Below, in pieces: positions 17,082-52,382 of a DNA stretch of 64,000 bases. Made by a program: the position numbers and the translations under genes. Under the pieces are notes generated by a model, which was not told where the DNA came from, made no database searches, and saw only the letters and a list, made by a program, of their open reading frames with translations. Every line of letters starts with the position of its first letter. Within the stretch, counting starts at the first letter, position 1. The DNA comes from an uncultured Gemmataceae bacterium (lineage in GTDB: Bacteria > Planctomycetota > Planctomycetia > Gemmatales > Gemmataceae): NCBI GenBank assembly GCA_963750165.1, contig CAVVPN010000003.1, positions 1,568,001-1,632,000 on the forward strand. The letters run 5' to 3'.

Positions 17082-18721
17082 GTGTCACGTTTTCTCGGCA
17101 TCGACTGGGACCAACACCAGTTGCACATACTCCAGGGCGGCGGTCGCGGCAGCGCTTGCCTCGAACGCGCGGCGCTGTCGCTGGACGGCGTCACCTTCAC
17201 CCCCGCGAACGCGGAGGCCGCCGGCAAGCTGCTCCGCCAGCGCCTCAAGGAGGCCGGCTTCGAGGCCGCGCCCGTGCTGGCCACCGTCAGCCGGGATCGG
17301 GTCGTTCTCAAGGAAGTCCGCATCCCGCCAGTCGCCGAGAACGAGGAACCGGCCCTCGTCCGCTTCCAGGCCGCCAAGGAACTTACCGAGGCGGACAACG
17401 TGGTCATTGACTACTGCTCCCGCCCCGGCAACGGCGACCGCCGCGCCTTCGTGGTGGCGCTCCGCAAGGATGTGGTCAATTTCTTCCAGTTAATGTGCAA
17501 GGCAGCTGGCCTGAAACTGCTGACGTTGACGCCGCGCGCCTTCGGCACCGCCATCGCTGTGCAGCACAGCCCCGTCAAGCCCGGCGCCGATTCGCCGGTG
17601 GCGGTCGTCTCGCTGGCGCCGCACTGGGCCGAGTTCTTCATCCTCCGCGGCGAACAGATCGTGTTCTCGCGGCCGTTGATGCCCGGCGCCGGCCTGCCCG
17701 GTGAGGTGCGCCGCAACCTGGCCGCCTTCGCCAATCAGGGGCCGCGCCAGAACGGCGCGGATCAGGTGCAGGGCCTGTACCTGGCCGGCAGCGAGGAGCA
17801 CCCCGACCTGCAACTGCAGCTGGAGCAGTCGCTCGGCCTGCCGGTCTATCCGCTGGATCCGTTCGCGGGCCAGGACAAGCTGCATTTCGCCGGCGGACCG
17901 CGCGGCGGCTTCACACCGCTGGCCGGCCTGTTGCTTGGCTGGTCCGCCCGCCAGCGCTGTGCCATCAACCTCGTCAAACCGCGCGAGCCCACCACCGCCG
18001 CTGACCCCAACCGCCGCAAGAAGGTGCTGGCGGCCCTGCTGGGTGTCGCCGCTTTGTTCCTGCTCGGCTCGCTGGCCCTCGCCTTCCAGGCGGGCGAGGC
18101 CCACAGGGAAGAGGAATTGCGGGATGTCGTCGGCAATCTCGACAACGAACTTCGCAAGCTGGACCCCGAGGCCAAACAGATCGAGGCCCTGAAAAACTGG
18201 ATGGGCAACTCCGTGTCGGTGATCGACGAACTGTACGACCTGACCGCCCTGTTCCCGCACAAGAAGGGGCTGCACCTCAAGGAAATCTCGTTCGCGTTAC
18301 GGGACGCGAAGGCCGCCGGAGGACCGGGCAAGGCGCCGCCACCAGCGCCGCCGCCGCCCGGAGCCAGGGACAGGAACGCGGTCCGGGAGAAGTATCACGC
18401 CGTCATGATTATCACTGGTGAGGTGCCCACCGGCGACGACCGCCTGGTGGAAAAGCTCAAGGACGACCTCAAGGAACGCGGCCGGCGGGCCAGAATCCTG
18501 TACCTGCCCGGCGCCAGCAAGAAGAACGCCAAGGAGTTCGCGCTGGAGATCGACCTGGGCCGAGCGCCCAGCGCCCCTACTCGCTGAAGCTGGTAGTGCC
18601 GCCGCCGATCTTTGATCGCAACGCCACGCCAGTGCCGCCGCCGAACCAGCAACTGCCGGCGACGGAGCAGTTGCAGCCGCCCGTCCGGGTGGAAGCGAAG
18701 GACGAGGAGGGCCAGCCATGA
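17082..18721 (+). CDS. PilM/GspL-like assembly protein fused to a PilN-like region (1-nt frameshift near 18558)
   Basis: FLGIDWD actin-like N-terminus, PALVRFQAAKEL, then INLVKPR followed by a TM helix and coiled coil. The alternative frame after 18558 ends in TGA overlapping the next ATG. Confidence 0.72.
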
Positions 18722-20403: not shown

Positions 20404-20730
20404 GACTGAGCGCCAAAAATAATTGCCCTTCCCTTTTCCTGCGCTCCGGCGTATAGGCCCTCCACGACACATTGCCAACCGAGGGGGCCACAGGTTCATG
20501 GAGGTGGCAGCCCGTCCGCGCCCGGGGAAGCGCGGAGCCTGCGTCCGAACCGCGGCCGGGAAATCTCGCTCAATAACATGGGCGGACCCTGCCGATGGTA
20601 ACGATAATACGGAAGCAGCAGATTTTGCTGTCGCAGGCAGGAGTGATTGGCTATCATGAACAATTGGTTTGGTTGGCATAACGTCGGTAATCAGGGGTGC
20701 CGTTCTTTGGGGACCCGACAGGGGAATACC

Positions 20731-23700: not shown

Positions 23701-26700
23701 ACTTCGAGTCCTGAACCAGTAGCCTTTGCGGTGCCCCGCCAGGATGGCGGGGCGCCCACCCTCCCCCTGGACCGGGTTCCGCAGGCTGCCATCGAATTCA
23801 TGCAGATCAGCTACGAAGAAGAGCAGCAAGTCCCCGTGGTCGGCGGCGAGTCTGTCACCGGGCCGCGCCTCGGCGTCACCGCCGAGGCCCTGGAGGCGCT
23901 CGGCATCCTGGTGCTGCGGGCCAACAATCAGCAGGACCTGGAGGCGGCGCTCAAGATCATCGAGTACATCCAGAAGCTGGGCGCCCAGGCGGAAATCCAG
24001 ATTAAACTGGTGCCGCTGCAGTACGCGGATGCCGTCAGCCTGGCCAACCAGCTGGCGTTCTTCCTGCAGCGCGTCATCATCGGACCGCAGGCGGTCACGC
24101 TGTCGCCGTTCGGGCGCGGCCGGGCGGCTTCGGTCAGCAGCCCGGCGGCTTCGGTCAGCAGGGCGGCGGCTTCGGTGGTGGCTTCGGCGGTCAGCAAGGC
24201 GGTGGCTTCGGTGGCCAGCAAGGCGGTGGCTTCGGCGGTCAGCAAGGCGGTGGCTTCGGTGGCCAGCAGGGCGCCGTGAGCCTCAACCTGAGCCAGCCGG
24301 CCGGCTCGGTGGTGTTTTACCCTGTCGTCCGGCTCAACGCCCTGCTGGTGGCGGCGCCCAAGTCGCGCATGGGCGATCTGTTGCGGCGCATCGAGGACCT
24401 CGACCGGCCGCCCACCACGAAGGCGGTGTCGTTCCCGCTCAAGCGGGCCTCGGCGACCGTCGTGGCCACGCAACTGCAACAGTTCTACGCCACGCGCAAC
24501 CGCGAGTTGCAGACCCAGAACGAGATCAGCTTCGCGTCGGACCCCAACAACAACACGGTGATCGTGCAGGCCGCGCCCGGCGACCTGGCCGAGATTCGCG
24601 ATCTGATCGAGCGCTTCGACAGCGTCGCCAACAACGCCCTCAGCGACCTGAAGATCATCCCGTTGCGCAACGCCATCTCAGACGTCCTGGCGGGCATCGT
24701 GCAGAAGGCCATCTCCGATGGTTACGTGCAGCCGAGCCTGGTCGGCTCAGGCGGCCTGCTCGGGGCGACCGGCGGCGGCGTCGGCGGCGTCGCCGGTGGC
24801 GGCCTGGGCGGCGGCGGCGGCCTGGGCGGCGGCGCTGGCGGCGGCCTGGGTGGCGTGGGCGGCCTGACAGGCGGTGTCCAGACGACGCCGGGCTACAAGT
24901 ATCCCACCAAGACCAACAACCTGCGGTTCGTCAGCAACCGCAAGGACCTTGGCGGCCAGGAGGAGTCGAGCATTCTGGAGGACGTGCGCATCATCTCGGA
25001 CGCGCGCATCAACAGCCTGATCGTCGCGGCCCCGGAGCGGACCATGAAGCTGATCGAGCTGCTGGTGCGCGACCTGGACGTGCCGCCGGCCGCCCGGGCC
25101 GAGATCAACATCTTCACGCTGAAGAAGGCGGACGCGGCGTCGCTGGCCAACTCGCTGCAGCAGCTGTTCCTGGGCACCGGTGCCGCTGGCGTCGGCGGCG
25201 CCGCCGGCGGCTTCGGCGGCGGTGCCGCGGGCGGCTTCGGCGGTGCCGGCGGCGGCTTCGGCGGTGCCGGCGGTGCCGCCGGCGGTGCGGGCACCGTCCC
25301 CCTGCTGCAGCTCACGCTGGGCGGCTTCACGCCGCAAGGGGCGCCGCTGATCCAGTTGCGCATCACCGTCGATGACCGCACCAACAGCCTCATCGTCGCC
25401 GGCAGCCGCAATGACCTCGATGTCATTGAGGCCATCGTCAGCCGGCTGGAGGACAGCGACGTGGCCCAGCGGCGCGTCACGGCCATCAAGCTCAAGAACG
25501 CCCAGGCGGCCGACGTGGCCAACGCCCTGACCACGTTCGTGGCCGGCATGATCTCGGTCTGGACCAAGGGCAACCAGCTGCAGCCCTTCCAGGAAATCCA
25601 GCGCGACGTGGTCGTCGTCGCCGAGCCGATCACCAACACGGTCATCTTCAGCGCCACGGATCGCTACTTCAACGAGCTGCTGCAGATCGTGATGCGCATC
25701 GACATGCTGCCGCCGCAGGTGGTCATCCAGGCAATCATCGCCGAGGTGGACCTGACGGGCACGGAGGAGTTCGGCGTGGAAATCGCGCTGCAGTCGCCGG
25801 TGATCTTCTCCCGCGGCGTGGACAGTACAGGCACGGTGCTGAACGCCTCGTCGCCGGGCTTCAACTTCAACAACACAGCGCTGCTGCCCACGTCCAGCCC
25901 TGGAGCCGGTCCGAGCACGGTCGGTTTCCAGGGGCTGGGCAACCTGGGCACGGGCCGGGTGTCGCCCAACAGCGGCATCGGCGGCTTCGTGTTCACGGCC
26001 TCCAGCAACGCGGTCAACGTGCTGGTGCGGGCCCTGAAGACGCAGAACCGCATCGACATCCTCAGCCGGCCGCAGTTGATGACCACCGACAACCAGGCGG
26101 CCCGCCTGCTGGTCGGCCAGCAGTACCCGACCATCTCCGGGTCGGTGGCGACCACGGCCACGACCGGCATTCCGACGGTGACCAACACCATCGTCTACAA
26201 GGATGTCGGCATCTCGCTGCAGGTGACGCCAAAGGTCAACCCCGATGGCACGGTGGTGATGCGCGTCATCCCCGAGGTCTCGACCGTCCAGCCGACGATG
26301 GTGATGATTAACACCGGCACGTTCGCCACGGCCTTCAACGTGCAGACGGTCGAGACGACGGTGATCGCCCAGGACGGCGAGACGGTGGTGATCGGCGGCC
26401 TGATCCAGAAGACGGACAACAAGACGGAAAACGCGGTGCCGGTCCTGAGTAACCTGCCGATAGTCGGGGCGCTGTTCCGCTACCGCCAGCAGCTCAAGCA
26501 CAAGCAGGAGCTGATCGTCATCCTGACGCCGCACATCGTCCGCTCGCCGCTGGACGCGGATCGGGCGCTGTACGACGAGGCGCGGCGCATGGACTGGGTG
26601 CTGGGCGACGTGATGAAGATGCACGGCCCGCGCGGCATCGACGTGCTCTCGAAGGTGCCGACGTCGCACCTGAACAACCCGTTGTACAAGGGTGGGCCTG

Positions 26701-27209
26701 GCGGCCCTGGCGGCCCCGGCGGCCCCGGCGGCCCGAACGCTGGCTGCAACAGCCCCGACTGCCTGATGGGCAAGAGCGGCTCGGACCTGGGCCCGGGGAT
26801 GACGCCACCGCCGCTGGTGCCCGGCGTGGGACCGTGGGATCCCGGCTACAAGCCGGAGTACGGCCCGACGCCGCGGCCATTCGTGCCGCAGCAGCCGACG
26901 CTGCCGGCCACCCCGGCGCCGATGCCGAAAACGGTCCCGCCAGCGGCGCCGACCACCGCCCCGCCGCCGATGCCGGCCGCTCCGCTGTCGTTCGCGCCGG
27001 TGGCACCGCAGACGCACGTGACGCTGACCGGCCAACCGCAGGGGACGCCGGTGCTGCCGGTGCTGCCGGCGCTGCCGGCCCAACCGCAGATCGTGCTGCA
27101 ACCGCCGGCCTCGGTGCCGCCTGGCCATACGGTGATGCCAGTGAACATCGTCCCCATGAACATGAACATGGGTCCCATTTCGGACACTCAGGGAAGGGAG
27201 TCCCGGTAA
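20731..27209 (+). CDS. gspD: Giant type II secretin, about 2,159 aa after repairing a 1-nt frameshift at 24112-24114
   Basis: Signal peptide, repeated secretin N-domains and a C-terminal secretin domain (QVVIQAIIAEV, ILSRPQLMTTDNQAA, DVGISLQVTPKV, DGETVVIGGLI, PVLSNLPIVGALFR, ELIVILTPHIV). One added G joins the two track ORFs through GGFGQQ repeats. Confidence 0.9.
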
Positions 27210-27279
27210 TGGTCGCGGTCTCGTTCGCACAGGGTTCGGAGACGGCGACGCCGCGCCCGCGCCCCGACAGGGGGCGCGG

Positions 27280-28665
27280 GTGGGGTGGGTCGCGCGTCTG
27301 GGATTGTGGCTGGGGCTGGCCGTGGCGCCGCTGACCGGTTGTACCACCGGTGACAAGCTGTTCTGCTGCCCGGACTGGCTGCACGGGTCGCCGTTGGTCA
27401 ACGACAACGCGGTGTGCCAGGTCGTGGCGACCTGGCAGAGTGAAGTGCAGTGGACGATTGATCCGGTCAACTACGGATCGACGCTGCCGGGCCTGGCGGG
27501 CAAGGTGTACCTGTTCGGTCAGGAGGCTAATCAACCGCTGGTGGGTGGCGGTGAGCTGGAGGTGGAGGTGTTCGACGAAAGCCGGCCGAACGCCCCGCCG
27601 CAGCGCCTGGAGAAATACAAGTTCGACAGGAAGTCGCTCCGGGAACTCATGCGTCAGGATCCGATTGGTTGCGGCTACACGGTGTTCCTGCCGTTGACCG
27701 CGTACCGGCCGGACATCACCCAGGTCCGGTTCAAGGTCTGTTACAAGACGGAGCGCGGCAACCCGCTGTACACGATCAGCAACACGACGGCGATCGTGCA
27801 TGGCGACCGGTCGAACCAGAGCCTGGGGCCGGTACTGGCGAAGGCGGTGGGAATGCCGCTGTCGCCGGCTGGCGGCCCGCAGCAGCAGGTGTACCAGCAA
27901 CAGCCGTACCAGCAACAGCCGTACCAGCAGCAGGTCCAGGCATCGTTCTACCAGCAGCAACAACAGCAGCAGTATCAGCAACAACAGCAACAGCAGTGGC
28001 AACAACAGCAACCGCAGTGGCAGCAACCGCCGCCGGCGAACATGCAGCGGTTCGCGATACCAACGGGGCCAACGCTGCCCAACCCGGGGTTGCAGCAGGG
28101 GCAATACCCACCGCAGCAGGGGCAATACCCACCGCAGCAGGGGCAATACCCACCGCAGCAGTCGGCGTTCGCGTCGGCGACCACGGGCGTTCCAGGTTAC
28201 CAGCCCACGCAGCCGCCGGCCGCGACGATGCAACCGATGCCACCGGTCGCGCGGAAGCCCGAGGCGATTCAGACGGGGCCGCCGGCGGATCTGCTGCCCC
28301 ACCTGCGACCGGAGCCTGGGACGGCGCCGCCGTACACACCGCCGAACCAGACGGGCGGACGAGTGCTGCAGTCGGTGTTCCCGGCGGTGCCGCCGATGCC
28401 GCCGCCGGACAACGGCCGGCCGGGGCAGCCGGTGACGACGGGTCTGCTGGTGGTGCCGCCGCCGCAACCCGGCGCGCTGGAGCCGGCGATCCCGCAAGCC
28501 AAGCCTGGGCGGGCGGGACTGGAGATGTCGTCGGGACTGCCGCCGACGGCGCCGGCCGTGGCGCCGGTGGGCCAGATCCAGCTGCTGCCACCGATTGCGA
28601 CACAGCCGTCTGCGGCCGAGTCCGGCGAGTCGTCGGGACTGCGGGTGCTGTACTCGAACCACTGA
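27280..28665 (+). CDS. Lipoprotein with Gln/Pro-rich tail (true start may be 27209 via a frameshift)
   Basis: Lipobox LTGC, a globular region (GLAGKVYLF...GCGYTVFLP), then QQQPY and QQGQYPP repeats. Confidence 0.7.
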   Translation: MGWVARLGLWLGLAVAPLTGCTTGDKLFCCPDWLHGSPLVNDNAVCQVVATWQSEVQWTIDPVNYGSTLPGLAGKVYLFGQEANQPLVGGGELEVEVFDESRPNAPPQRLEKYKFDRKSLRELMRQDPIGCGYTVFLPLTAYRPDITQVRFKVCYKTERGNPLYTISNTTAIVHGDRSNQSLGPVLAKAVGMPLSPAGGPQQQVYQQQPYQQQPYQQQVQASFYQQQQQQQYQQQQQQQWQQQQPQWQQPPPANMQRFAIPTGPTLPNPGLQQGQYPPQQGQYPPQQGQYPPQQSAFASATTGVPGYQPTQPPAATMQPMPPVARKPEAIQTGPPADLLPHLRPEPGTAPPYTPPNQTGGRVLQSVFPAVPPMPPPDNGRPGQPVTTGLLVVPPPQPGALEPAIPQAKPGRAGLEMSSGLPPTAPAVAPVGQIQLLPPIATQPSAAESGESSGLRVLYSNH

Positions 28666-40740: not shown

Positions 40741-40793
40741 TGCGGTGTCCAGGTGAGGGTGTCCGGTTCGTAGTACCGCGTGTCAACGCACTG

Positions 40794-41086
40794 TCAACCG
40801 TTGCGCGGTGGCACGATGTTATAGCCCAGCGCCAGGATCAGTTTGAGCGTCTCCAGCGCCGCGTCGCGGTCGTATTCCTTCTTGTCCTCCGGCAGCTGGT
40901 CGTACGCCACCAGGTCCGGATGCCGCTTGGCGGCGGCGTCCGTCGTCGGGCCATACGTCCAGCCGTCGGCGAGCTTCGCCGCGCCGAGACATCGTGCGTG
41001 TTCTCGGCCAGGCGCTCCGTCAGGTCGCGCAGGGCTTCCGGCAACTGCACCGCGGACGTGTCCACGGGTTTCGGTTCGTAACGCAT
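40794..41086 (-). pseudogene. Stand-alone RyR (ryanodine receptor repeat) domain protein, frameshifted near 40985
   Basis: YEPKPVDTSAVQLP...ERLAENTHDV / DGWTYGP...KRHPDLVAYDQLPEDKKEYDR...LKLILALGY. The usual Trp after H-D-V reads TCG, next to the indel. Confidence 0.85.
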
Positions 41087-41192
41087 CGTTCCCTCCCTCG
41101 TTGAAATGCCACGGGCGATATTCTTGCCTCACGCCGCCGGTCCGAACAGGGCGTCGGCGTCGAACTCCGGCCCGACTCACCTCCAGTCGCCA

Positions 41193-42090
41193 TCAGGCGT
41201 CCAGGATGCGGCGGGCCTGCTTGCCCATGCTGTCGCGATGGAACGGCTGCACGTTCGCCTCGGCCGCCGTCGCCGGGTGCCAGATGTTGTCGTCCGGCAA
41301 CGCCACCGGCCGCCGGGCTAACAGCTCGTCCGCGGCCGCCCCCCCTTCTGCAAATACACATCGCAACGGACGTCCTGCCGCCGCTGCCACCCCAGCGCCG
41401 CCAGCAGCAACAGCAGCGTCGCCTTGTTGATGCCCGGATAGTGGCCGTTGCGCAGGCCATAACCCAGGTCGTACTGCCGCAGCGCTTCCAGGTAGTGCTG
41501 CTCCGCACGGTCGAGATCCTCGTCCTGCCAGGAGATAGCCGATGCGTTCGTAGAGCTGGGCGAAGACATCGGTCACGGATGCTGGCGACGGGGTGCCGTG
41601 ACAGACGGCGCCGAGGAAGGCGTGTTCGAGGTGGACGGCAGGGATGCCGCCCAAAAACTGCTGGGCGTCGCCGTAGACCAGGCCGATCAGGCTGCCGTCG
41701 CCGGCGTGCCGCGGTTCGAGCGTCATGAACACGGGATCGTGGCGGAGGCCGTGTGGCTTGCAGGTGTGCCAGGCGGGTCACCTCGGCGGCGAGGCGGTCG
41801 GGGCCGGCGAGCTTGACGACGTGACGGCCAGGCTGGTCGGTGCCGTCCACCTCGACGAGGAGGATGAACTCGCGGTCGCGGCGGCGGTAGCCGAGGTACT
41901 GGTCCTGCACGGCGACAGCGCGGGCGCCGGGGAAGAGGCGTTCCAGGCGGCGGGTGAGGTCGGTCATGGTGTCGTCCTGGGCGTTGGGCTGGTGGCGGCC
42001 GATGGCCGCGGCGAGGGCCTGGCGCAGACGGCGCTGGGCGGTGACGGTCCAGAACACGAGCGGCGGTTGCTCGGGCGGGGGCGGTCGCAT
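41193..42090 (-). pseudogene. Internally deleted paralog of the kinase-like + TPR-S gene at 47831-50092
   Basis: Colinear motifs HVVKLA, AWHTC, LVYGDAQQFLGG and PSPASV; a jump near 41530 to HYPGINKATL and DNIWHPATAAEA; several frameshifts. Confidence 0.78.
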
Positions 42091-42246
42091 GGGGGCGACT
42101 CCTGCGCTGGGGGCCGGGCGGCCCGGTCAGAGGATGGGGCAAAGCACGCCGATTACATGATATGGAATAAAAGGAATTTATTCAATGATAAATTCACAAA
42201 TACATTGATAAGACCCGCGCTGATTTAGAGCGGTTCGCATCAAACG

Positions 42247-42446
42247 GTAGCGGTTTCTTCGCCCCGAAGGGGCGGGACAACATAGCCCAGGGCATCGCCC
42301 TGGGGGCTCCGATTCGACCCTCTCCCTTTTTTCTTCCGTGCCCTGAAGGGGCACGGAAGAGAGGAGAGTGTCAGTCTTCTCCATGGTTCCCAGGGCGATG
42401 CCCTGGGCCAAGTTGTCTCGCCCCTTCGGGGCGAAGAAACCGCTAC
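42247..42446. mobile_element. 200-bp MITE/REP-like element with long imperfect terminal inverted repeats
   Basis: GTAGCGGTTTCTTCGCCCCGAAGGGGCG...GCCCAGGGCATCGCCCTGGG is mirrored at the other end; internal GCCCTGAAGGGGC hairpin. Confidence 0.7.
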
Positions 42447-42475
42447 ACCCAACCGCAACATGCGCCAGGAGTCGC

Positions 42476-45400
42476 TCAACCCCGCTGCAACATCTGCCGC
42501 ACCCCCGCGAAGTCGCCATCGACGATCTGCTCGAATCCGATGGGGTGCAGCACGTCGGCGATATGCGCCAGCATGTCGCCCACATCCACGATCCACCGGC
42601 TCATCTTCACCAGCAGCATGCCGTCCTGCATGCCCAGCAGGTTGTCGTTGCGCAGCTGCAGCAGGGCGTCCAGTTCGCCCTTCCAGTGCCGCGTGTGGGC
42701 GGCCCGCTCGCGGATGCTGCCGATGCGGGCGTCCTCCAGCGTCAGCGGCAGGATGCGCCGCAAGAACTCCTCCGCCTGACTGCGGCTGTACTGGTAGATG
42801 CCGTGCAGTTCACTCATGCAGAACACCGACCGCAGATATTTTTCGCTCAGCACCACGACTACCCGGTCACCGCGCGTGAGCGCGTGCATGAATTTCGAGA
42901 TGCGCTCGCCGCGGCGCATGGCGTCCTTGTCGCGGATGACCTCGTAGTCCCACGACCGCAGCCGTGCGCACAGGCGCTCAACCACCTCCTCGCGCTGCCG
43001 GCCCGCCGCGGTCGTGTCCTCACCCCAGGCGTAGGAAATGAACACCTGCGGTTTGCCGGCCCGCACGACCACCGATGGTTCGACGATCTCCAGGTCCTCG
43101 ATGCCGCCCCGCGCCGCGTCCGGCGCGGGCTGCTGCCGCTCCGGCGTGCGCGTCACCTCCGGCGGTTGGCCGACGGCCACCTCGAGCAGCGTCTTGAGCA
43201 CGCTCTCCACCAGGTCCGCCGCCTGCTCGCCCCACGCGGACAGGGTGACCTCCCCGGCCCACGGCTGCTCCGGCCCCAGCCCCTGCCGGCTCTGGATCAG
43301 CAGTTTGCAGCGGGTCTTCTGCTCCCAGAAGCGGCAGCCGTACTTCCAGTACACCGCGGCGTCGCGCCCCTGTTCGCCGACCCTCGACAGGAACGTGCGC
43401 AGGATGCCCTCGTGCAGGAAGCCGAAGCGGGCCGTCGCCGCGGCCGTCGGCGGCGTCTCCGGCACCCAGCCGGCCAGCTGGTCCTGCACGCCGCGATCCG
43501 CGAAGTCCGGCAGCAGGTCCGGGGCGGCGTAGTCCCACACCGCATCACGCCCCGGCGCGGCCAGGTTGCGGACCCGGAAGCAGATGCCGCAGCTTAGCAT
43601 CATGCCGAGGAAGGTTTCCTGCTCGGCGTCGCTGTAGTCCTGCCAGACGAGCTGGGCCAGTGTCTGGCGGACGAAGCGGCCGTCGCGGAACAGGTACGGC
43701 AGGGTGCGCTGGCGGTCGAACAGCGTGTAGATCGCCTGCAGTGCCCAGCTCTGATCCAGGATGATGCGGTCCTCGAACAGGCCGCGGCGGTAGAACACCA
43801 CGCCGCTGCGGTGCAGGAACTCCAGCAGCGCCGCCGGGTCGCTGACCTTGCCCGTCTCCTGGCACAGGGCCTGGAACTCGTCCTGGGTGAGGGTGCGGTG
43901 TCGGCGCTGGGCGGGCGGCCGGACCTGGTCCTCCTCCAGCATGGCCCGCAGCCGCTCGCGCACCTCCGCCCGCCCCGCCCCGATCTGCCGCAGCGGCCGC
44001 CGGTGCAACAGGTGCTGCACCGCTTGCTTGAGGTGGCCCACCAGGGCGTCCAGCCCGTAGTCGGTTTTGGCGCTGAACTCCAGGAACTTGCGAGAGCGGA
44101 AATCCTTCACGGGTACATCGGGCTGCGGCCGGCATTGTTCGGGGCCGTCGCACTGGCTCTGGACGACCAGGACCGGGCTGACGGTGCCGGCCAGGCGGCG
44201 GACGTAATCGAGCCAGTAGGCCAGGGGGTGATGGCGCATCTCCACGCCCTTCTCGACCGTGCCGCCCGTCTCGTGGTCCGGCGTCCACAGGAGGACGAAG
44301 ACCGCGTGCCCCTGCAGGAAGAGGGCGTGCGTGCCGTGGTAGACGTCCTGGCCGCCGAAGTCCCAGAAGCGGACATGCACGGGGCGGTCGCGCCCGGTCA
44401 GGGTTAGCTCGAAGTCGTGGAGTTCCACGCCGTGCGTGGTGGGGACGTTGTTGGGGTCGGGGTCGTACGGCAGCCCGCGCAGGCGGCGGCACAGCTGCGT
44501 CTTGCCGACGCCGCCGTTACCCAGGACGAAGAGTTTGACTTCCGCGTCCTCGGCGGCACCGTGTTCCAGGTCGGCGTAATGGGCTTTCACCTGGTCGAGG
44601 ACATTCTCGTGTGATGCTTGGCCACAGACTTCTTCCGGCAAGTCGTTGAAATGACAATCGAAGAGACGCAGTTCCTGGAGTTTGGGGAACAATTGATGGA
44701 ACCTGTCAAAGACGCGAAGTTTGTCACACCGGCACAGGTCGAGGGACTGGAGGTTGACCAGGGCCGCCAGCGGGGCCACGTCGGCCACGCCGGTGCTCTC
44801 CAGGTCGAGGGATTGGAGGTTGGTCAGGGCCGCCAGCGGGGCCACGTCGGCCACGCCGGTGCTCTCCAGGTCGAGGGACTGGAGGTTGGTCAGGGCCGCC
44901 AGCGGGGCCACGTCGGTCACGCCGGTGCTGGCCAGGTCGAGGGACTGGAGGTTGGCCAGGGCCGCCAGCGGCGCCACGTCGGTCACGCCGCGGCAGTTGC
45001 TGAGGTCGAGGGACTGGAGGTTGGCCAGGGCCGCCAGCGGCGCCACGTCGGTCACGCCGCGGCAATAGCTGAGGTCGAGGGACTGGAGGTTGGCCAGGGC
45101 CGCCAGCGGCGCCACGTCGGTCACGCCGGTGCTGGCCAGGTAGAGGGACTGGAGGTTGGCCAGGGCCGCCAGCGGCGCCACGTCGGTCACGCCGGTGCTG
45201 GCCAGGTAGAGGGACTGGAGGTTGGCCAGGGCCGCCAGCGGCGCCACGTCGGCCACGCCGGTGCTCTCCAGGTCGAGGGACTGGAGGTTGGCCAGGGCCG
45301 CCAGCGGCGCCACGTCGGCCACGCCGCGGCAGAAGCTGAGGTCGAGGGACTGGAGGTTGGCCAGGGCCGCCAGCGGCGCCACGTCGGTCACGCCGGTGCT

Positions 45401-46228
45401 GGCCAGGTAGAGGGACTGGAGGTTGGCCAGGGCCGCCAGCGGCGCCACGTCGGTCACGCCGCGGCAATAGCTGAGGTTGAGGGACTGGAGGTTGGCCAGG
45501 GCCGCCAGCGGCGCCACATCGGCCACCCCGGTGCTGTCCAGGTCGAGGGACTGGAGGTTGGCCAGGGCCGCCAGCGGCGCCACGTCGCTCACGCCGCGGC
45601 AGTAGCCGAGGTTGAGGGACTGGAGGTTGGCCAGGGCCGCCAGCGGCGCCACGTCGCTCACGCCGCGGCAGTAGCCGAGGTTGAGGGACTGGAGGTTGGC
45701 CAGGGCCGCCAGCGGCGCCACGTCGGTCACGCCGGTGTCGGTCAGGTCGAGGGACTGGAGGTTGGCCAGGGCCGCCAGCGGCGCCACATCGGCCACCCCG
45801 GTGCTGTTCAAGAAGAGGGACTGGAGGTTAGTGAGGGCCGCCAGCGGCACCACGTCTTTAATTTCCGTGCAGCCAGTCAGACTGATTCGCTCAAGCTGCG
45901 TTAGGGTTCCAAGAATGCTCAGGTCGGAGATGCCTTGCGCTTCCAAGTACCAGCAATGGCCCTGGGCGTCACCCGGTTGGGTTCCAAGAATGCTCAGGTC
46001 GGAGATGCCTTGCGCTGGTCGATTCGGATCCCATTCCCAATCAACACCGTCCTTGCCAATGCGAGGCGACCATTGCCCCAGCGCCAACACTCTCAGTTCC
46101 GTGAGGCTCCCCAACTCCTCGGGCAACGCATCGAGCGGCAAATCGCCAAGGTCGAGAACCTGGGCATGTTCCGCACGCGCCGCGGCGATGCGGCGCACGG
46201 CTTCCCGGTGGGCTTCTTCAGGCGACAT
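42476..46228 (-). CDS. Roco protein: LRR - Roc GTPase - COR - TIR
   Basis: LRR array; GNGGVGKT, TTHG, WDFGGQDVYHGTH and FSAK; COR (FLHRSGVVFY); TIR (VFISYAW...VVVVLSEKYLRSVFCMSEL). Confidence 0.93.
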   Translation of the reverse strand: MSPEEAHREAVRRIAAARAEHAQVLDLGDLPLDALPEELGSLTELRVLALGQWSPRIGKDGVDWEWDPNRPAQGISDLSILGTQPGDAQGHCWYLEAQGISDLSILGTLTQLERISLTGCTEIKDVVPLAALTNLQSLFLNSTGVADVAPLAALANLQSLDLTDTGVTDVAPLAALANLQSLNLGYCRGVSDVAPLAALANLQSLNLGYCRGVSDVAPLAALANLQSLDLDSTGVADVAPLAALANLQSLNLSYCRGVTDVAPLAALANLQSLYLASTGVTDVAPLAALANLQSLDLSFCRGVADVAPLAALANLQSLDLESTGVADVAPLAALANLQSLYLASTGVTDVAPLAALANLQSLYLASTGVTDVAPLAALANLQSLDLSYCRGVTDVAPLAALANLQSLDLSNCRGVTDVAPLAALANLQSLDLASTGVTDVAPLAALTNLQSLDLESTGVADVAPLAALTNLQSLDLESTGVADVAPLAALVNLQSLDLCRCDKLRVFDRFHQLFPKLQELRLFDCHFNDLPEEVCGQASHENVLDQVKAHYADLEHGAAEDAEVKLFVLGNGGVGKTQLCRRLRGLPYDPDPNNVPTTHGVELHDFELTLTGRDRPVHVRFWDFGGQDVYHGTHALFLQGHAVFVLLWTPDHETGGTVEKGVEMRHHPLAYWLDYVRRLAGTVSPVLVVQSQCDGPEQCRPQPDVPVKDFRSRKFLEFSAKTDYGLDALVGHLKQAVQHLLHRRPLRQIGAGRAEVRERLRAMLEEDQVRPPAQRRHRTLTQDEFQALCQETGKVSDPAALLEFLHRSGVVFYRRGLFEDRIILDQSWALQAIYTLFDRQRTLPYLFRDGRFVRQTLAQLVWQDYSDAEQETFLGMMLSCGICFRVRNLAAPGRDAVWDYAAPDLLPDFADRGVQDQLAGWVPETPPTAAATARFGFLHEGILRTFLSRVGEQGRDAAVYWKYGCRFWEQKTRCKLLIQSRQGLGPEQPWAGEVTLSAWGEQAADLVESVLKTLLEVAVGQPPEVTRTPERQQPAPDAARGGIEDLEIVEPSVVVRAGKPQVFISYAWGEDTTAAGRQREEVVERLCARLRSWDYEVIRDKDAMRRGERISKFMHALTRGDRVVVVLSEKYLRSVFCMSELHGIYQYSRSQAEEFLRRILPLTLEDARIGSIRERAAHTRHWKGELDALLQLRNDNLLGMQDGMLLVKMSRWIVDVGDMLAHIADVLHPIGFEQIVDGDFAGVRQMLQRG
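44735..45856 (-). repeat. Tandem array of 66/69-bp LRR-coding units
   Basis: 16 complete units (ten of 22 aa, six of 23 aa) plus partial ends, with consensus LQSLxLxx(T/CR)GVxDVAPLAALAN. Confidence 0.95.
45904..46016. repeat. Exact 38-bp direct repeat around a 37-bp insert
   Basis: GGGTTCCAAGAATGCTCAGGTCGGAGATGCCTTGCGCT at 45904-45941 and 45979-46016. Confidence 0.9.
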
Positions 46229-46262: not shown

Positions 46263-46624
46263 GTCCGGTTCGTAGTACCGGCTTTAGAGCAGTTTGCGGC
46301 TGGGTGTAGCGGTGGAGTGTGGTGGCCCTGTTACTCGGGCTGGCAGCGTGGGGCACGGGACGGCACTGGTTTCCGACACAGTGGCCCGGTGGCCCGGTGG
46401 CCCGGTGACTCTTCCGACGACCCGCTACACCCGTCCGCTCACTGCTCTAGCCGGAACCGACGCTCAGATTCCGGCTAATACGGGAGCGCCTGGAGAGTTC
46501 ATGTTCCCTGTCCGAGCCCGAGCGCCAGCGAGGTGGCAGCTGGCCCCTCGCTGGCGCTCGGGCTCGGACCCCAGACAAGAACGATCCAGGCGCTCCCGTA
46601 TAAAGCCGGCACTACGAACCGGAC
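46263..46624. repeat. 24-bp inverted repeats enclosing a (GTGGCCCG)-type tandem and a hairpin at 46510-46569
   Basis: GTCCGGTTCGTAGTACCGGCTTTA (46263-46286) pairs with 46601-46624, one mismatch. An 18-nt direct copy lies at 40761. Confidence 0.8.
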
Positions 46625-47830: not shown

Positions 47831-50092
47831 TCATTTCCGCCCGCCGCACCCCCCGACCGGCCCCGGTTGGATGCTCTCCCAGGTCGCATGGCCGGCGAAC
47901 AACACGTCCACCAGCCGGCCCAGTTCCTTCTGATCGAGCACGTGCCACAGCCGGCAAAGTTGGTGGTACGCGGCCTGCACGGGTTGCACAGTCGCGCCGG
48001 AGTGGTCCAGGGCGTTCTGATAAAACTCAAACGCTTCCGCATACTTGCCCAGAACCAGGGCCGCCTCGCCTTCGGTCGCGAACACCCAGAACGTGTCCTC
48101 GCGTTTCAGAATGTCCGGTCGCCAGCACAACTCGGCCACGCGCCTGGCGAGTCGGGTCGCCCGCGGCGCCTCACCGAGCAGCAGCGCCAGTGACGCCGCG
48201 TTGACCCCGGGGTAGTAATCGTCGGTCAGCTCGAACGCCTCCTCATAGACCAGCAGGGCCATGTGATACTGCTGCCATGCCGGCGAGCCCTGCGGCACTC
48301 CGCCACTCTCCTTATCCACCCGATACCACTTCCCCCACGCCGCGTCCCCCGCGTTCTTGTAGGTGCGTCCCAGCCGGCTCAGCGTCTCATGGTCGCCGAA
48401 GACCTTGCACCCTTCCTGGAAGCCAAGGACCAGCTTCTGGGCTTCCGCGCCTTTGCCCACCTCGGAGAGTAACAGGGCGTATTCCTGCTCCAGCGGCACC
48501 GCATGGCTGAACAACGGCCGGTACACTTCGAGCAACTTCAGCCCCTGCGCGGCCTTGCCCTCCTGCCAGAGACGATGGGCCTGGAACAGCGGCACACGGT
48601 AGCAGGGGCAGAGAACCGCCTCGTCCTGCGGCGGCTGCGCCATCAGATCGCGGAGGCTCTGCTGCGTCGTGGTGAGTCGGGCCGCCGCCACCCCGGCCGC
48701 GACCAGCGCACACTCGGCCGCCTGCGGTTCGTAGTCCCACTTCACGCTCATCAACCCGTAGACGGTCAGGGCGAAGTAATACTCCTCGCGCCAGTCGTAC
48801 ATCCGGCTGCGGTCGTGTCCCAGGACCAGGGCTGCCTCCTGCCGGATGCGCAGCAGGATTTCCAGCAACCGATCCAGCGTCTGCTCGTTCAGCACGCCAC
48901 GGCCGCCCGGCGGTTCGCGGCGTGCGGCGTCATCGCGGCTCAGGATCTGCTCGGTGCGCTCCGCCAGCTGTCGCTCGAAGAAGTACGCGAACTCCAGCCG
49001 ATCCGCCCGCCGCCCCCGGTCGGTATTGCTGGCCGGCCCGGTTCGCTTCCGCGCCGAGTCGTGTAGCAGCCGGTCGCGGATTTTCGGCTCGCGGTACAGT
49101 TTCGTCAGCATCCGGACCTTCAGCTCGGTCTCCAGTTTGACGAAATCCCAGACGATGACGTTATCCGGCCGCATCGTGCCATAGTCGATGATGACCGGGT
49201 ACTGTGCCTCCTCGCGTTCGACGCCGAGCAGGATGTTGCGGCCGTGCAGGTCGCCGTGCGACCGGCCGACCAGCGTCTCGGGCAGGGTGTTGGTGTCCAG
49301 GGCCCAGCGCACGTAGCTCACCGGGTCCAGGTAGGTCGGCACCAGGTCGGCGAGGTTTTCGGGCCGCTCCTTGCCGCACAGCAGCCAGATGGCGTCGCGG
49401 CGCAGTGCCACCGGGTCCGGCCGCCGCGCCCCGCCGGTGCAGCACCATTTCGTCAGCACCCGGTCCACTTCCGCCTTCGCCCCGGTCAAGAGTTTGCCTT
49501 CGTAGAACGCCCGGCCGCGATCGTCGGTCAGTCTGCCGTCGGCGTAGAACCAGCGGCCGAGGTCGGTGAAAAGATGGCAGATCACCCGCTCCACCGACAC
49601 CGGATCGGGGTTGTCTTTCACGGCCCATTCGACCACGGTTTCCAGGGTTTCGACGCGAGTTTTTTCGCCGTAGCCGCCGAACAGCATGTAGGCGTCCCGG
49701 TAGATCACTGCGAACCGGTCGGTTTTGGGCAACCGGTCGTCTTTGGACAAATCGTAGGGCCGCGGCGCATGAAGGATGCGGCTGGCCACGTCGCGGCCGG
49801 CGGTGCAGGCGTTCCAGCCGGTCCAGTCCGATTCGACCTTCTCCTTGCGGCCGATCTTGACGATGTGCGACTCGAAGCCGTCGTCGAAGCGCACGCCGAC
49901 GCCGAGCACCACCGACTTGCTGATGTCGGGCGCATAGCCGGTGAAGGAGCGCGACACGGTGATGGCCCGGGCGGGGCGCTGCTCGTCCCGGGTGAAAATG
50001 GCGGCCAGTTCGGGCCGCAGCACGTCCTTGAAGGCGTCGGGGATCTCCCGCGCGGCCGGTTCCACGAATTCGACCAGGTGACGTTCGGCCAT
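47831..50092 (-). CDS. APH/protein-kinase-like domain fused to TPR-S (DUF4071 / MAP3K TRAF-binding-like) domain, 753 aa
   Basis: AAGGAGG RBS; HIVKIG, HGDLHGRNILL, IIDYG and DFVKLETE; C-terminal ETLSRLGRTYK, YYPGVNAASL and FWVFATEGEA. Confidence 0.8.
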   Translation of the reverse strand: MAERHLVEFVEPAAREIPDAFKDVLRPELAAIFTRDEQRPARAITVSRSFTGYAPDISKSVVLGVGVRFDDGFESHIVKIGRKEKVESDWTGWNACTAGRDVASRILHAPRPYDLSKDDRLPKTDRFAVIYRDAYMLFGGYGEKTRVETLETVVEWAVKDNPDPVSVERVICHLFTDLGRWFYADGRLTDDRGRAFYEGKLLTGAKAEVDRVLTKWCCTGGARRPDPVALRRDAIWLLCGKERPENLADLVPTYLDPVSYVRWALDTNTLPETLVGRSHGDLHGRNILLGVEREEAQYPVIIDYGTMRPDNVIVWDFVKLETELKVRMLTKLYREPKIRDRLLHDSARKRTGPASNTDRGRRADRLEFAYFFERQLAERTEQILSRDDAARREPPGGRGVLNEQTLDRLLEILLRIRQEAALVLGHDRSRMYDWREEYYFALTVYGLMSVKWDYEPQAAECALVAAGVAAARLTTTQQSLRDLMAQPPQDEAVLCPCYRVPLFQAHRLWQEGKAAQGLKLLEVYRPLFSHAVPLEQEYALLLSEVGKGAEAQKLVLGFQEGCKVFGDHETLSRLGRTYKNAGDAAWGKWYRVDKESGGVPQGSPAWQQYHMALLVYEEAFELTDDYYPGVNAASLALLLGEAPRATRLARRVAELCWRPDILKREDTFWVFATEGEAALVLGKYAEAFEFYQNALDHSGATVQPVQAAYHQLCRLWHVLDQKELGRLVDVLFAGHATWESIQPGPVGGCGGRK

Positions 50093-50394
50093 TGGCGAAA
50101 CCTCCTTTGAGGTGAGAGGCGAGGCGCACATCACGATGATGGGGCGCGCCGGGCACTGGGGTTTCCCACCGCCGGGGTGGGCGATCTTGATTCCCCCATG
50201 TCGCAGCCCGATTGTACCCTGGCGAACCTCCGTGCAAACACAATTCGGCGTTCCTGTCAGGCACCACGGCCAGGAACCTGGAGAGATTGCCGATACGCGA
50301 CCGGCGCGAGTCATCGACCGCAGAACCTTCCCGTCGTGGGTTCATGCCCTCTACAATGGCGAGAGTCTCGTCGCCATGAATCCCTCGGTGCCCC

Positions 50395-51321
50395 ATGACG
50401 AACTCTGTTTCGCCGGAAGTGCTGCGCAAGGTCCGCAAGCTGGCCCAGCTGCCCGAGGAGGCGCGGCAGTGTCACTTCGCCGTGTCCATCACCCGTCTCA
50501 CCGTCCTCAAGAGCCTGTGCGCACAGCCCGACACGGCCAACCGCTTCGTGACGTACCTGGCGCGGGCCACCCGGCGGCGGGTGGAGGAAACGCCCAAACG
50601 TCCGCGGAGCCTCTCGGAGCAGGAGTGGGCGGCCCACCGCGACCTGCTCGGCCGGGCCGTCGTGGCGCTGGAGCGGTACCTGGAGCGGCCCACGGAGGAG
50701 GGTCGCGACCGGCTGCGGACGCTCTTGCGGGAGTTGATCGACGCGCAGAACGAGCACCGTCGGGTATACGGCGGGCCGGTGCGGATCATCAAGGACATGA
50801 ACCTGCTCGTGGTCGAGTACGCCGTGCGCACCGTCGTGGCCAACGCGGCCAGTGCCCCGTTCTGGGTCTACCATACGGCCCGCTGTTACGCAGAACGCTA
50901 CGACGCCCGCCACGGCACCGGCCTGACGCCGGAGTCGGCGCCGCTGGTACAGGACATCGCGGACTTCTGGCTGCAGGAGTACGGCCTCACCGCCGAGACG
51001 CTCACCGCGCCGGCGCGGTCGCGCAAGCCGCGGAAGGCAGCGGCGACGGGTGCGGCCGAGGAGCGGGTGCGGTTCACGCCGCGGCAGGGGCAGTTTTTGG
51101 CGTTCATTCACCTGTACCGCACGCTGCACCGCCGCGGACCGGCCGAGACGGACATGATGAAGTATTTTCGCGTGACGCCGCCCGCGGTCCACGACATGGT
51201 CGTCAAGCTGGAGCAACTGGGGCTGGTGACGCGCGAACCCGGGGTGGCGCGCTCCGTGCGCGTGGTGGTACCCGCCGCGGAACTGCCCGCGCTGGAGGCG
51301 GTCGAGGGGCCGGCGTGGTGA
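50395..51321 (+). CDS. Unknown helical domain fused to a LexA/MarR-like winged HTH
   Basis: C-terminal FTPRQGQFLAFI...FRVTPPAVHDMVVKLEQLGLVTREPGVARSV. Confidence 0.7.
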   Translation: MTNSVSPEVLRKVRKLAQLPEEARQCHFAVSITRLTVLKSLCAQPDTANRFVTYLARATRRRVEETPKRPRSLSEQEWAAHRDLLGRAVVALERYLERPTEEGRDRLRTLLRELIDAQNEHRRVYGGPVRIIKDMNLLVVEYAVRTVVANAASAPFWVYHTARCYAERYDARHGTGLTPESAPLVQDIADFWLQEYGLTAETLTAPARSRKPRKAAATGAAEERVRFTPRQGQFLAFIHLYRTLHRRGPAETDMMKYFRVTPPAVHDMVVKLEQLGLVTREPGVARSVRVVVPAAELPALEAVEGPAW

Positions 51322-51342
51322 TGGACCCGCCGCGGCGCTACG

Positions 51343-51401
51343 GTAGGTCCGGCGAGCCGAGCCGGACCCGCAGCGGTTGCCGCTCGGCTCGCGGCACCTA
51401 C
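51343..51401. repeat. REP-like inverted repeat at the NB-ARC truncation point
   Basis: GTAGGTCCGGCGAGCCGAGC...GCTCGGCTCGCGGCACCTAC. Confidence 0.75.
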
Positions 51402-52382
51402 GGCGGCGGCCGGCGGCAGGGCGTCGAGGTCCACGGCCGCCAACCCCGGCAGCGTGAAGCGCCGCCGCGATGTGACCAGCAACAGGCAGCCCTGCGACGG
51501 CGTCAGCCCCTCCAACTGCTCCGGGCCGGCGGCGATGTCCAGCAGCAGCAGCAGCACGCGCTTGCCCGCCAGTACACTATGGTACATGCCCTCCAGCGCC
51601 GCGTCGTCGTCCGGCAGGCGCTGCTCCAGCCCCAGGAACGAGCGGATCACGTGGCCGAGGATGTCGCGGCGCGGCAGCGGCGGCAAGCCGGCGTGGAAGC
51701 CGCTGAGGTCGAGCGCCACGTGGCCATCGCGGTAGCGCTCGCCGACCAGCGCCGCCAGCTTGCGGGCCAGCTCCGTCTTGCCGATGTCCCCCTGGCCGCG
51801 CACGCCGCTGATCGTCGCCCCGTGGTCGCAGTGCGCCAGCAGCGTTTGCAACTGCTCCGTGCGGCCGATGAAGTCCGGCACCGGCGCCGGCACCTGCCGC
51901 GGCCCCAGCAGCCCGCGCCGCCGCATCCAGCCCTGCAGCGCCAGGTACACGGCATGGCGCAGGTTGTCCGGCGTGGTGAATGTGGCGGCGACCAGGCCGG
52001 CGTTGCGAATCTTGTCGTGCAGGGCCTTGATGCGGTCGCGGTGCTCGGGCTGCTTGCGCTCCTCCGGCCAGGCGTACTGCGGATCGACGAGGAAGCACAG
52101 CCGTTCGAGGCCGCGCCGCGTGGCGTGGTCGAACTCGTGCTCGGTGACGGAGCGCTGGTCGCCGGGCAGGGGGTGGCCGAAGCGGTAGGCGAAGACGCCG
52201 ACGTAAACAGCCGCCCCCTCGAGCTTGAGCAGCGAGGCGCGGACGGCGTCGAGGTCGGCGGCCTCGAAGTCCTTCATATCGACGACGCCCAGGCCGAGCT
52301 CGTCGCAGGCGCGGCGGACGGCGGCGCGGTAGTCGGCCAGGTCGAGACTGGTGCTGCTGATGAAGACCGTGGCGAGGGGCAT
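51402..52382 (-). pseudogene. Truncated DUF4062 (TIR-like) + NB-ARC/STAND NTPase gene
   Basis: VFISSTSLDLADYR...SVTEHEF; DFIGR; Walker A GQGDIGKTELA; LLLLLDIA; LLVTSRR. Homology stops at LDALPPAAA, and the rest of the track ORF is repeat and antisense sequence. Confidence 0.8.

Follow-up and report, generated by a model that had tools for sequence, protein, structure and literature searches.

A planctomycete LRR-Roc-COR-TIR protein with a strongly homogenised repeat array as a candidate one-gene anti-invader receptor

The stretch of planctomycete DNA analysed here (64,000 nucleotides, the window) contains a Roco-TIR gene that clearly exemplifies, in strongly homogenised form, a kind of receptor for which a role as bacterial immune sensor has been predicted. 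The protein, probably cytoplasmic since no hydrophobic leader is seen on inspection by eye, is proposed to be a stand-alone, one-gene anti-invader receptor, a reading that, together with the mechanism outlined below, is considered reasonably probable, the anti-invader role taken by itself being slightly more so. The locus is a tidy example and brings no new principle, its architecture having been published and the behaviour of its repeats having been seen before in fungi, algae and Flavobacterium. It is, however, a stand-alone gene with a measurable predicted output (loss of NAD+) and with naturally occurring alleles whose differences lie almost entirely in the LRR arm, so that the immune prediction made in 2021 becomes directly testable. 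Furthermore, bacterial Roco proteins serve as a structural model for human LRRK2, and no paper giving a ligand or a physiological role for a bacterial Roco was found.

Architecture of the Roco-TIR protein

The sensor-switch-effector architecture (table 1) is virtually certain. The reading frame is intact and forms a single gene encoding, in this order, an N-cap, the LRR array, a C-cap, the Roc GTPase, COR and TIR; Pfam places Roc (residues 565-694) directly ahead of COR-A, both above cut-off, and the top fold match is the Chlorobium tepidum Roco 6hlu (E 2e-36). In the alignment to 4wnr the Roc motifs are kept (the P-loop GNGGVGKT, T598, DFGGQ and SAK), and SQCD, which is conserved across the family, sits where 4wnr has NKID (NKxD motif). 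The union of a GTPase switch with a TIR effector and an LRR sensor, proposed when the DNA was first read without database searches (the sequence-only reading), is thus borne out by Pfam, this alignment and the fold match. The N-terminal start resembles that of homologues (MSPEEA...RRI...LDLGDL), and an exact 38-bp direct repeat yields an in-frame 25-aa insertion immediately ahead of the LRR array, in the region where the fold model has pLDDT <50 (residues 75-97). Many homologues carry the label internalin, which was rejected here: the NCBIfam InlA match scores 217 bits against a cut-off of 1600 and concerns the LRR part only, and Roc-COR-TIR is present.

Table 1. Features of the Roco-TIR gene, in positions of the window
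Feature	Position	Strand	Residues, basis and composition
Whole Roco-TIR gene	42476..46228	minus	1250 aa; ORF and Pfam LRR_4, Roc, COR-A, TIR_2
N-terminal cap and first degenerate LRRs	45827..46228	minus	aa 1-134; GC3 0.66
38-bp exact direct repeat (copies 45904-45941 and 45979-46016)	45904..46016	minus	period 75 bp
16 homogenised LRR units	44753..45826	minus	aa 135-492; 22-aa T type and 23-aa C-R type; GC3 0.99
Last degenerate LRRs, C-cap and LRR-Roc linker	44540..44752	minus	aa 493-563; GC3 0.66
Roc GTPase	44024..44536	minus	aa 565-735; Pfam Roc and Ras; alignment to 4wnr; conserved columns
COR domain	43148..43933	minus	COR-A aa 766-904; COR-B about aa 929-1027 (predicted secondary structure)
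TIR domain	42479..43045	minus	from aa 1062; Pfam TIR_2 E 5e-14; Glu1140 codon 42809-42811

The TIR domain keeps, as had been pointed out from the sequence, the Glu of the CMSEL motif (E1140), whose counterpart in the plant TIRs L6, RUN1 and RPV1 is the CLxEL Glu and which we take to be the catalytic residue of NADase TIRs. Of 113 homologous TIRs, 111 have it and the other two have gaps, with no substitution. The domain is considered likely to be an active NADase. The effector is swapped on similar cores, a trypsin-like domain being found in P0070 and a different TIR in P0094 and P0113, and the second Roco gene of the same genome has no TIR-like or comparable exchangeable C-terminal effector.

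Make-up and turnover of the LRR array

The array is detected by TRF at 44735-45856 (period 66, 16.7 copies, score 1620). Splitting at LQSL delimits, as assembled, 16 complete units, of which 10 measure 66 bp and 6 measure 69 bp; 13 of the 16 are distinct, and the two types are interleaved in the order AABBABABAAABBAAA. Across the units, framework codons 15-23 and 1-4 show a pS of 0.036 and a pN of 0.013, the pS expected when codons are drawn from the gene's own core usage being 0.42 (300 draws, minimum 0.31); the array framework is strongly homogenised. Variation is found at unit positions 5, 7 and 8, which hold 4-7 codon alleles each, at position 13 (A/T/S) and at position 22 (A/T/V, in the last three units), while the switch between the T and C-R types is located at positions 9-10. 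Positions 2 and 3, on the same face as 5, 7 and 8, are invariant, and the helix side is fixed too, except for position 22.

The sequence-only reading had described units near-identical even at synonymous sites, interleaved 22-aa and 23-aa types, an A/T/S position and a series of triplets at positions 5, 7 and 8 (FNS, DTD, NGY, NGY, DDS, NSY, YAS, DSF, DES, YAS, YAS, DSY, DSN, DAS, DES, DES), all of which stand, the triplets exactly. Three further statements need some qualification. Variation was said to concentrate at three positions, and 13 of the 17 amino-acid-changing steps (22/23-aa type switch left out) indeed fall on those codons, but position 22 and the switch also vary. Identical units were said to recur non-adjacently; whole-unit nucleotide identity is limited to 3=4, which are adjacent, and 7=10=11, so that non-adjacent identity concerns one unit type. 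Finally, the variable positions were assigned to the concave face, and in the fold model, which misbuilt the array ends (pLDDT <50 at 127-166 and 439-477) and served for strand positions of the middle units only, position 5 alone lies within the beta-strand, with 7 and 8 just past it.

Whether the exposed codons are under selection depends on how composition is treated. With type-switch codons excluded, codons 5, 7 and 8 account for a minimum of 13 nonsynonymous changes and 1 synonymous change, and the remaining codons for 4 and 6 (Fisher p 0.009). The selection ratio at a-priori face positions is 2.9 (p 0.018) but 1.1 (p 0.52) with G/C-ending codons only, and spans 1.1-4.6 according to site choice and GC3 treatment; in the six 23-aa units, the face codons have a pN (0.23) below pS (0.44). 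Of 22 homogenised arrays in the family, 21 have a face N rate above the overall S rate, including some with a core GC3 of 0.5-0.7. When the arrays are pooled, codons 5, 7 and 8 have elevated synonymous counts as well (1.1-1.4 per site), and across 70 homologues within-gene variation is highest at these positions (0.70, 0.64 and 0.81, respectively). Positive selection on the variable face codons is judged fairly likely, with a signal that, in this array, is lost under strict GC3 correction. A non-Roco LRR protein of the same genome (C11:656904, one of seven scored) has the same face-variable pattern and a non-adjacent duplicate, so that the pattern does not diagnose immunity.

Recombination between units had also been anticipated and finds support in four-gamete patterns: 27 of 136 informative site pairs are incompatible, with all four gametes found at, e.g., nt 21 x nt 48 (synonymous) and unit type x codon 13, which points to recombination within units and to mosaic units. 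Of the seven extra tree steps, four concern variable codons and could plausibly reflect recurrent mutation. Units farther apart in the array are no less similar to one another (rho 0.10, p 0.11), and incompatibility does not rise significantly with distance (p 0.20).

The genus search covered this genome alone. Within the family, presence is patchy (any match in 44 of 251 genomes), and a quick tree groups the gene among planctomycete sequences of the same family. The array is not invariant among relatives. L134 and L139, which share flanking genes, have 96.8% identity in their Roc-COR DNA, yet their arrays number 11 and 14 units, of which 1 of 10 compared is identical; L138 and L139 (core 95.3%) have 16 and 14 units, none identical; and P0018 and P0019 are 96.9% identical in the core versus 65% in the array. 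In each of 12 hand-picked pairs (cores 84-97%) the arrays are less alike than the cores. Unit number is unchanged in three of eight near-identical clusters and in L036/L038. The nearest match of a unit lies strictly in its own gene for 301 of 686 units, with 134 ties and 251 elsewhere. Taken together, recombinational turnover of the array is highly probable.

Proposed mechanism and alternative explanations

In the proposed mechanism, unequal crossover and gene conversion would duplicate, delete and splice the near-identical units, and point mutation, probably with selection, would renew the exposed residues; through this reshuffling and mutation each lineage would therefore have a different binding surface. 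A foreign protein from a phage or other invader would bind the LRR arm and shift the nucleotide and dimer state of Roc-COR, upon which the TIR domains would self-associate and hydrolyse NAD+, so that the infected cell would be stopped or killed. Direct NAD+ depletion appears likelier than a signal to a dedicated effector, because no recurring partner gene was found among 95 related loci (71 of which have 3 kb or more of flanking sequence). The coupling step meets a difficulty: the C. tepidum Roco hydrolyses GTP in a nucleotide-dependent dimer-monomer cycle and is a monomer on GTP, according to PMC11052575, and such monomerisation would not obviously drive TIR assembly, which counts against the mechanism.

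The main alternative is neutral repeat instability, in which the array would be a recent expansion from one or two GC-rich units by ordinary tandem-repeat recombination, varying only where positions are free, and the LRR arm would serve as a brace, regulatory or auto-inhibitory, rather than as a variable sensor of ligands. It would account for the loss of the selection signal under GC3 correction and for the similar pattern of the non-Roco LRR protein; moreover, young repeat copies are generally under relaxed selection (PMC5120217) and the LRR of LRRK2 is auto-inhibitory (PMC11052575). That other exposed sites (2 and 3, and all of the helix side save 22) stay fixed while 5, 7 and 8 vary, and that the excess of face changes recurs in nearly all the arrays compared, some of moderate core GC3, makes this alternative unlikely. 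A guard or self/non-self receptor, whose LRR would monitor a host protein or kin-specific product, in the manner of fungal HET-D/E, and trigger NAD+ loss on modification or mismatch with no direct binding of a phage protein, would suit repeat dynamics that fit HNWD proteins (>80% internal identity, unit gain and loss, few diversifying codons; PMC12222747), but related loci lack a co-varying partner gene, and it is considered quite improbable.

Explanations for the array that invoke the assembly or a dedicated machinery fare worse. Arrays of this kind are unreliable in short-read assemblies (PMC12222747), and the frameshifts of a neighbouring gene would fit a unit number or order made or scrambled by the assembler; such an artefact is nevertheless very improbable for a 3.56 Mb contig in a 12-contig genome, with mostly distinct units (13 of 16), a longest internal exact repeat of 128 bp, an intact frame and, on other large contigs (e.g. 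L209), arrays of similar make-up in which T and C units are mixed in the same way. The sequence-only reading had spoken of cassettes, loosely as in lamprey and hagfish VLRs, receptors whose LRR units vary at the concave face and whose somatic assembly draws on numerous flanking donor cassettes. The array shares with VLRs the variation on the predicted concave face, but no donors were found: the genome, 93% complete, holds no second unit copy (weak 27-bp and 50-bp matches only), and the VLR-like part of that reading is not supported. Mutagenesis by a diversity-generating retroelement (DGR) could seem suggested by the variable codons, nearly all of the form NNC and superficially like mutated AAC codons, and by seven reverse transcriptase matches in this incomplete genome. 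However, a third-position C is expected at the GC3 of the array; 12 distinct 48-nt windows gave 0 template matches in the genome with 6 non-A mismatches allowed; and of five reverse transcriptases scanned, four match best group II intron or retron types and the fifth is unclassified and weakly matched, none being named DGR by a profile library that may lack such a model (the fragment L169 lay outside the scan). Programmed diversification from silent cassettes or by a DGR is thus the least probable explanation of all, and, with neither donors nor template found, the variation more likely arose by ordinary unequal crossover or gene conversion within the gene, as has been proposed for fungal HET-D/E.

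A bolder extension of the anti-invader reading, advanced only tentatively and itself rather unlikely, is that the array is a fast contingency locus in which, within one population, recombination of LRR units keeps making receptors of new phage specificity wired to an NAD+-destroying switch. It would fit P0027 and P0129-P0133 (one 90% cluster, near-identical cores), which differ in unit number and face residues, part of which may stem from short-read assembly. Were it true, bacteria would possess a heritable, recombination-built receptor repertoire, a bacterial LRRK2-type GTPase would for the first time have a class of physiological ligands, and the sensor would be modular, its specificity changeable by reordering units.

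Relation to known systems and genomic context

Prokaryotic AP-GTPase (Roc)-COR proteins with 'rapidly evolving' LRRs and TIR effectors have been predicted to form a counter-invader system (eLife 2021, section 15 and Fig. 6D; PMC8195603), with at least 24 C-terminal effectors, TIR and trypsin being named. The protein shares with them, as that section presents them, the rapidly evolving N-terminal LRRs, AP-GTPase, COR and exchangeable effector. Its source data may list close relatives; section 15 itself contains no experiment and does not analyse homogenisation, mosaic units or allele turnover at the level of units. A literature search outside which most subscription journals lay found neither an experiment on a bacterial Roco-TIR nor an account of unit-level recombination in bacterial Roco arrays. 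The LRR-Roc-COR fold and GTPase motifs are those of the C. tepidum Roco (6hlu, 8r4b) and Methanosarcina Roco2 (4wnr), which PMC11052575 describes as LRR-Roc-COR only; the present protein adds the TIR and the near-identical array.

Brown algal ROCO genes, proposed immune receptors with four positively selected concave-side sites, likewise combine LRR-ROC-COR with shuffled LRR units and concave-side variation, but each algal LRR is an exon, subject to shuffling and alternative splicing (PMC11378527), whereas the Roco-TIR gene has no introns and its breakpoints lie inside units. The best mechanistic analogue of the array is found in the fungal HNWD NLRs HET-D and HET-E, which, according to PMC12222747, have intragenic repeats 80-100% identical, concerted evolution by unequal crossover, few diversifying codons and a cell-death output; high (>80%) repeat identity, unit-number polymorphism and few variable codons are shared. 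HET-D/HET-E are, however, STAND-type NLRs with a WD40 propeller acting in eukaryotic allorecognition, as that text has them, and the LRR, Roc-COR and TIR protein is not an HNWD member. The LRR loci of Flavobacterium psychrophilum, for which the VLR comparison has already been drawn, are also bacterial and have LRR units some 22 residues long that are hypervariable on one face and bear signatures of recombination, but they encode secreted surface proteins in tandem multi-gene arrays without GTPase or TIR (Roc, TIR and GTPase: 0 mentions in the main text of PMC10392669).

Around the related loci, neighbours were clustered after removal of alternative frames of the Roco gene, and no conserved operon or Thoeris-like partner emerged; the largest recurring families are an ABC ATPase-like ORF (8 loci) and a LysR-like ORF (5 loci). 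PADLOC gave only partial, TIR-level matches. Conflict-type neighbours in the window include TPR-S, DUF4062 and RyR, and among the seven window neighbours the RyR fragment alone recurs, at L087 and L212, apparently one contig. A neighbouring gene carries several frameshifts.

Architecture and homogenization of the array

The LRR array (window 44735-45856) is enclosed by a single open frame, the Roco gene, which also encodes a TIR domain and a Roc-COR part matched by the solved Roco structures 4wnr, 3dpu and 6hlu. The structure predicted for residues 1-1200 (mean pLDDT 83, pTM 0.72) has 6hlu as its top fold match (E 2e-36), and in this model the LRR strand spans unit positions 3-5, counted from the LQSL motif, with position 5 on the strand and positions 7 and 8 directly past it. 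The host genome comprises 9.6 Mb in 12 contigs (~66% GC, 93% completeness), and in a quick tree the gene clusters with same-family genomes, which makes the host a planctomycete.

Features of the Roco gene and its surroundings
Feature	Position	Strand	Remark
Roco gene	window 42476-46228	-	1250 aa
LRRs	N-terminal to Roc, in 42476-46228	-	Pfam, above cut-off
Roc	aa 565-694	-	Pfam, above cut-off
COR-A	aa 766-904	-	Pfam, above cut-off
TIR_2	aa 1062-1167	-	Pfam, above cut-off
TCAD9 + TPR-S gene	window 47831-50314	-	intact; single copy in genome
DUF4062, then STAND-like NTPase	window 51108-52382	-	NTPase apparently truncated
Gene with RyR domain at its end	window about 40790-41970	-	in several frames

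On re-splitting the array, the 16 complete units (ten 22-codon and six 23-codon units) and all the variable face triplets of the sequence-only reading proved correct. Thirteen of the 16 units are distinct, unit 3 being identical to 4, and 7 to both 10 and 11, and 23 of the 69 columns of the unit alignment are variable. The near-identity claimed for synonymous sites was also borne out: in the framework (codons 15-23 and 1-4) pS is 0.036, against 0.42 expected from the gene's own codon usage (minimum 0.31 in 300 random draws), a shortfall large enough for the likeness of the units to reflect recent common ancestry, and not codon bias. The array has a GC3 of 0.99 and Roc-COR-TIR one of 0.90-0.96, compared with 0.66 in the caps (44540-44752 and 45827-46228); in several homologues GC3 of the LRR region is likewise below that of the core. 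Immediately ahead of the array, an exact 38-bp direct repeat (45904-46016, 75-bp spacing) adds 25 in-frame residues, and for the 37 bp separating the two copies the rest of the host genome offers no good match.

Origin and turnover of unit variation

Conflict with a single tree is found for 27 of the 136 informative site pairs, most clearly at codon 16, since a synonymous site is used there: units with a DES core and units with an xAS core are each found with either form of codon 16 (units 9, 15/16, 7/10/11 and 14). Furthermore, A and T at codon 13 are both found in each unit type. Simple tandem duplication would predict a decay of unit similarity with distance along the array, and none is seen (p 0.11); counting against recombination, however, incompatibility does not rise with distance (p 0.20), and some conflicts involve variable codons that could have mutated more than once. 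As to the source of the variants, a search of the host genome (93% complete) for donor arrays gave no second copy of the LRR unit, 12 windows gave no match to a DGR-type template in the same genome, and four of the five reverse transcriptases scanned resemble group II intron or retron enzymes, the fifth being unclassified. From these results, the exchange of units would be intragenic, via unequal crossover or conversion. Of the initial proposal, recombination among units is supported, and cassettes in the VLR sense are not. An 858-aa frame (L170:403-2979, near 1628500 of contig C11) carries a weak, unclassified reverse transcriptase domain, with an LRR gene ~6 kb away; two retron-like reverse transcriptases (loci L166 and L167) have long N-terminal extensions and scores under the NCBIfam cut-offs.

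The array also varies among relatives. In all of 12 pairs chosen by hand for 84-97% identical cores, array identity is lower (59-85%), and unit number differs in 11, some sequences being partial. Loci L134, L138 and L139, which have flanking genes in common and are 95-97% identical in Roc-COR DNA, contain 11, 16 and 14 units, respectively, no compared pair sharing more than one identical unit. Among nine multi-member clusters examined, eight had comparable members, unit number differing in five and being constant in three. According to PMC12222747, short-read assembly can distort repeat number, and on that basis the differences in unit number may be artefacts, although such errors would less readily account for face residues that differ altogether. 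The L138 record is titled Chitinophaga, with Roco gene and flanks ~95% identical to cyanobacterial records, and is probably a mis-binned contig.

Face codons, family and TIR glutamate

The face positions are predicted to bind ligand from what is known of LRRs in general and from PMC11378527 and PMC10392669. Minimum change counts, which omit the type-switch codons 9-10, give 13 nonsynonymous and one synonymous change at codons 5, 7 and 8, and four and six elsewhere (Fisher p 0.009). The a priori face positions (2, 3, 5, 7 and 8) have an N/S ratio of 2.9 (p 0.018), but of only 1.1 (p 0.52) when G/C-ending codons alone are allowed, a restriction which is conservative, yet relevant with such a GC3 in the array. 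The face ratio exceeds 1 in 21 of 22 homogenized arrays (framework identity at least 85%, at least seven units), among which kin are not independent, and in which synonymous counts at codons 5, 7 and 8 are also high; in an earlier pass over 44 arrays, the 13 with the greatest homogeneity included 12 whose face pN exceeded the framework pS. These comparisons suggest that old face variants have been retained within a younger framework, and positive selection on the face codons is likely.

A Roc-COR-TIR query matched 565 of 8000 candidate proteins scored, and also loci spread over several phyla (e.g. Planctomycetota, Acidobacteriota, Pseudomonadota, Cyanobacteriota and Verrucomicrobiota); family counts rest on 120 proteins among the matches listed. 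Seventy of these carry at least seven chained units, with within-gene variation highest at positions 5, 7 and 8, mixed unit lengths in 39 and non-adjacent identical windows in 11. With a framework uniformity of 0.94 (median 0.72) the array ranks fifth of the 70, and is thus extreme, yet not unique, within the family. The TIR glutamate noticed at the outset holds as a matter of conservation, Glu1140 being present in 111 of 113 proteins bearing such a TIR, with gaps in the other two; the TIR is absent in six of 119, three with other effectors and three apparently truncated. In the cluster of homologue P0120, several members (P0158-P0171) are separate proteins 329 aa and 455 aa long. The names of one 329-aa member and of a 479-aa member mention TIR and COR, respectively, which suggests that a split or broken gene form is common in that population.

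The host has a second Roco gene (G000:C1:313963-316233), LRR-Roc-COR without TIR, with its own homogenized 23-aa units (face pN 0.43, framework pS 0.05). The genome contains a dozen or more further LRR genes, including that of a non-Roco protein (G000:C11:656904-658571) with 16 scored units, one duplicated non-adjacently, a face pN of 0.57 and a pS of 0.045. One of the seven non-Roco arrays scored has the face-variable pattern, which alone is thus no proof of immunity.

Proposed function and genomic setting

The LRR arm would most likely bind an invader product, upon which the Roc-COR state would shift, the TIR domains assemble, NAD+ be cleaved and the cell halt. TIR must oligomerize to act. 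The C. tepidum Roco is dimeric in the nucleotide-free state and monomeric when GTP is bound (PMC11052575), a change that would not obviously drive TIR assembly. AP-GTPase-COR proteins with rapidly evolving LRRs are a predicted counter-invader system in PMC8195603, where TIR is named among at least 24 effectors, and PMC7159879 mentions AP-GTPases within ternary systems.

The array is real and well-formed and belongs to a known predicted family, and its diversification follows a known repeat mechanism. VLR assembly is known from lymphocyte receptors. PMC10392669 describes hypervariable bacterial LRRs and already draws the VLR comparison, PMC11378527 reports that exons encoding LRRs are shuffled in algal ROCOs, PMC12222747 describes in fungal NLRs the same repeat dynamics as here, and PMC5120217 presents fast divergence among repeat copies as general. 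The literature search found neither an experimental test of a bacterial Roco-TIR nor a unit-level study of bacterial Roco arrays; the gene offers a testable case of the predicted counter-invader family.

Only 44 of 251 same-family genomes contain any match to the gene, and among 95 related loci no partner gene recurs, the conflict-system type TCAD9 + TPR-S gene being absent beside all of them. Together with the latter, the DUF4062 and LysR genes upstream and the frameshifted RyR gene downstream make the surroundings look like a decaying conflict island; the broken frames may reflect either decay or sequencing error. One stretch of the RyR gene resembles, by eye, the TPR-S part of the TCAD9 + TPR-S gene, and at L087/L212 the Roco gene likewise has an RyR domain nearby. 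The end of the DUF4062 gene is overlapped by an opposite-strand ORF (50395-51321, +) with a weak LexA-like match. Palindromic repeated elements flank the Roco gene (about 46490-46600 and 42240-42470) and recur across the genome, BLAST giving up to about 320 and 55 matches. Large open frames at window 18577-28200 contain long tandem repeats of low complexity, rich in glycine and in glutamine.
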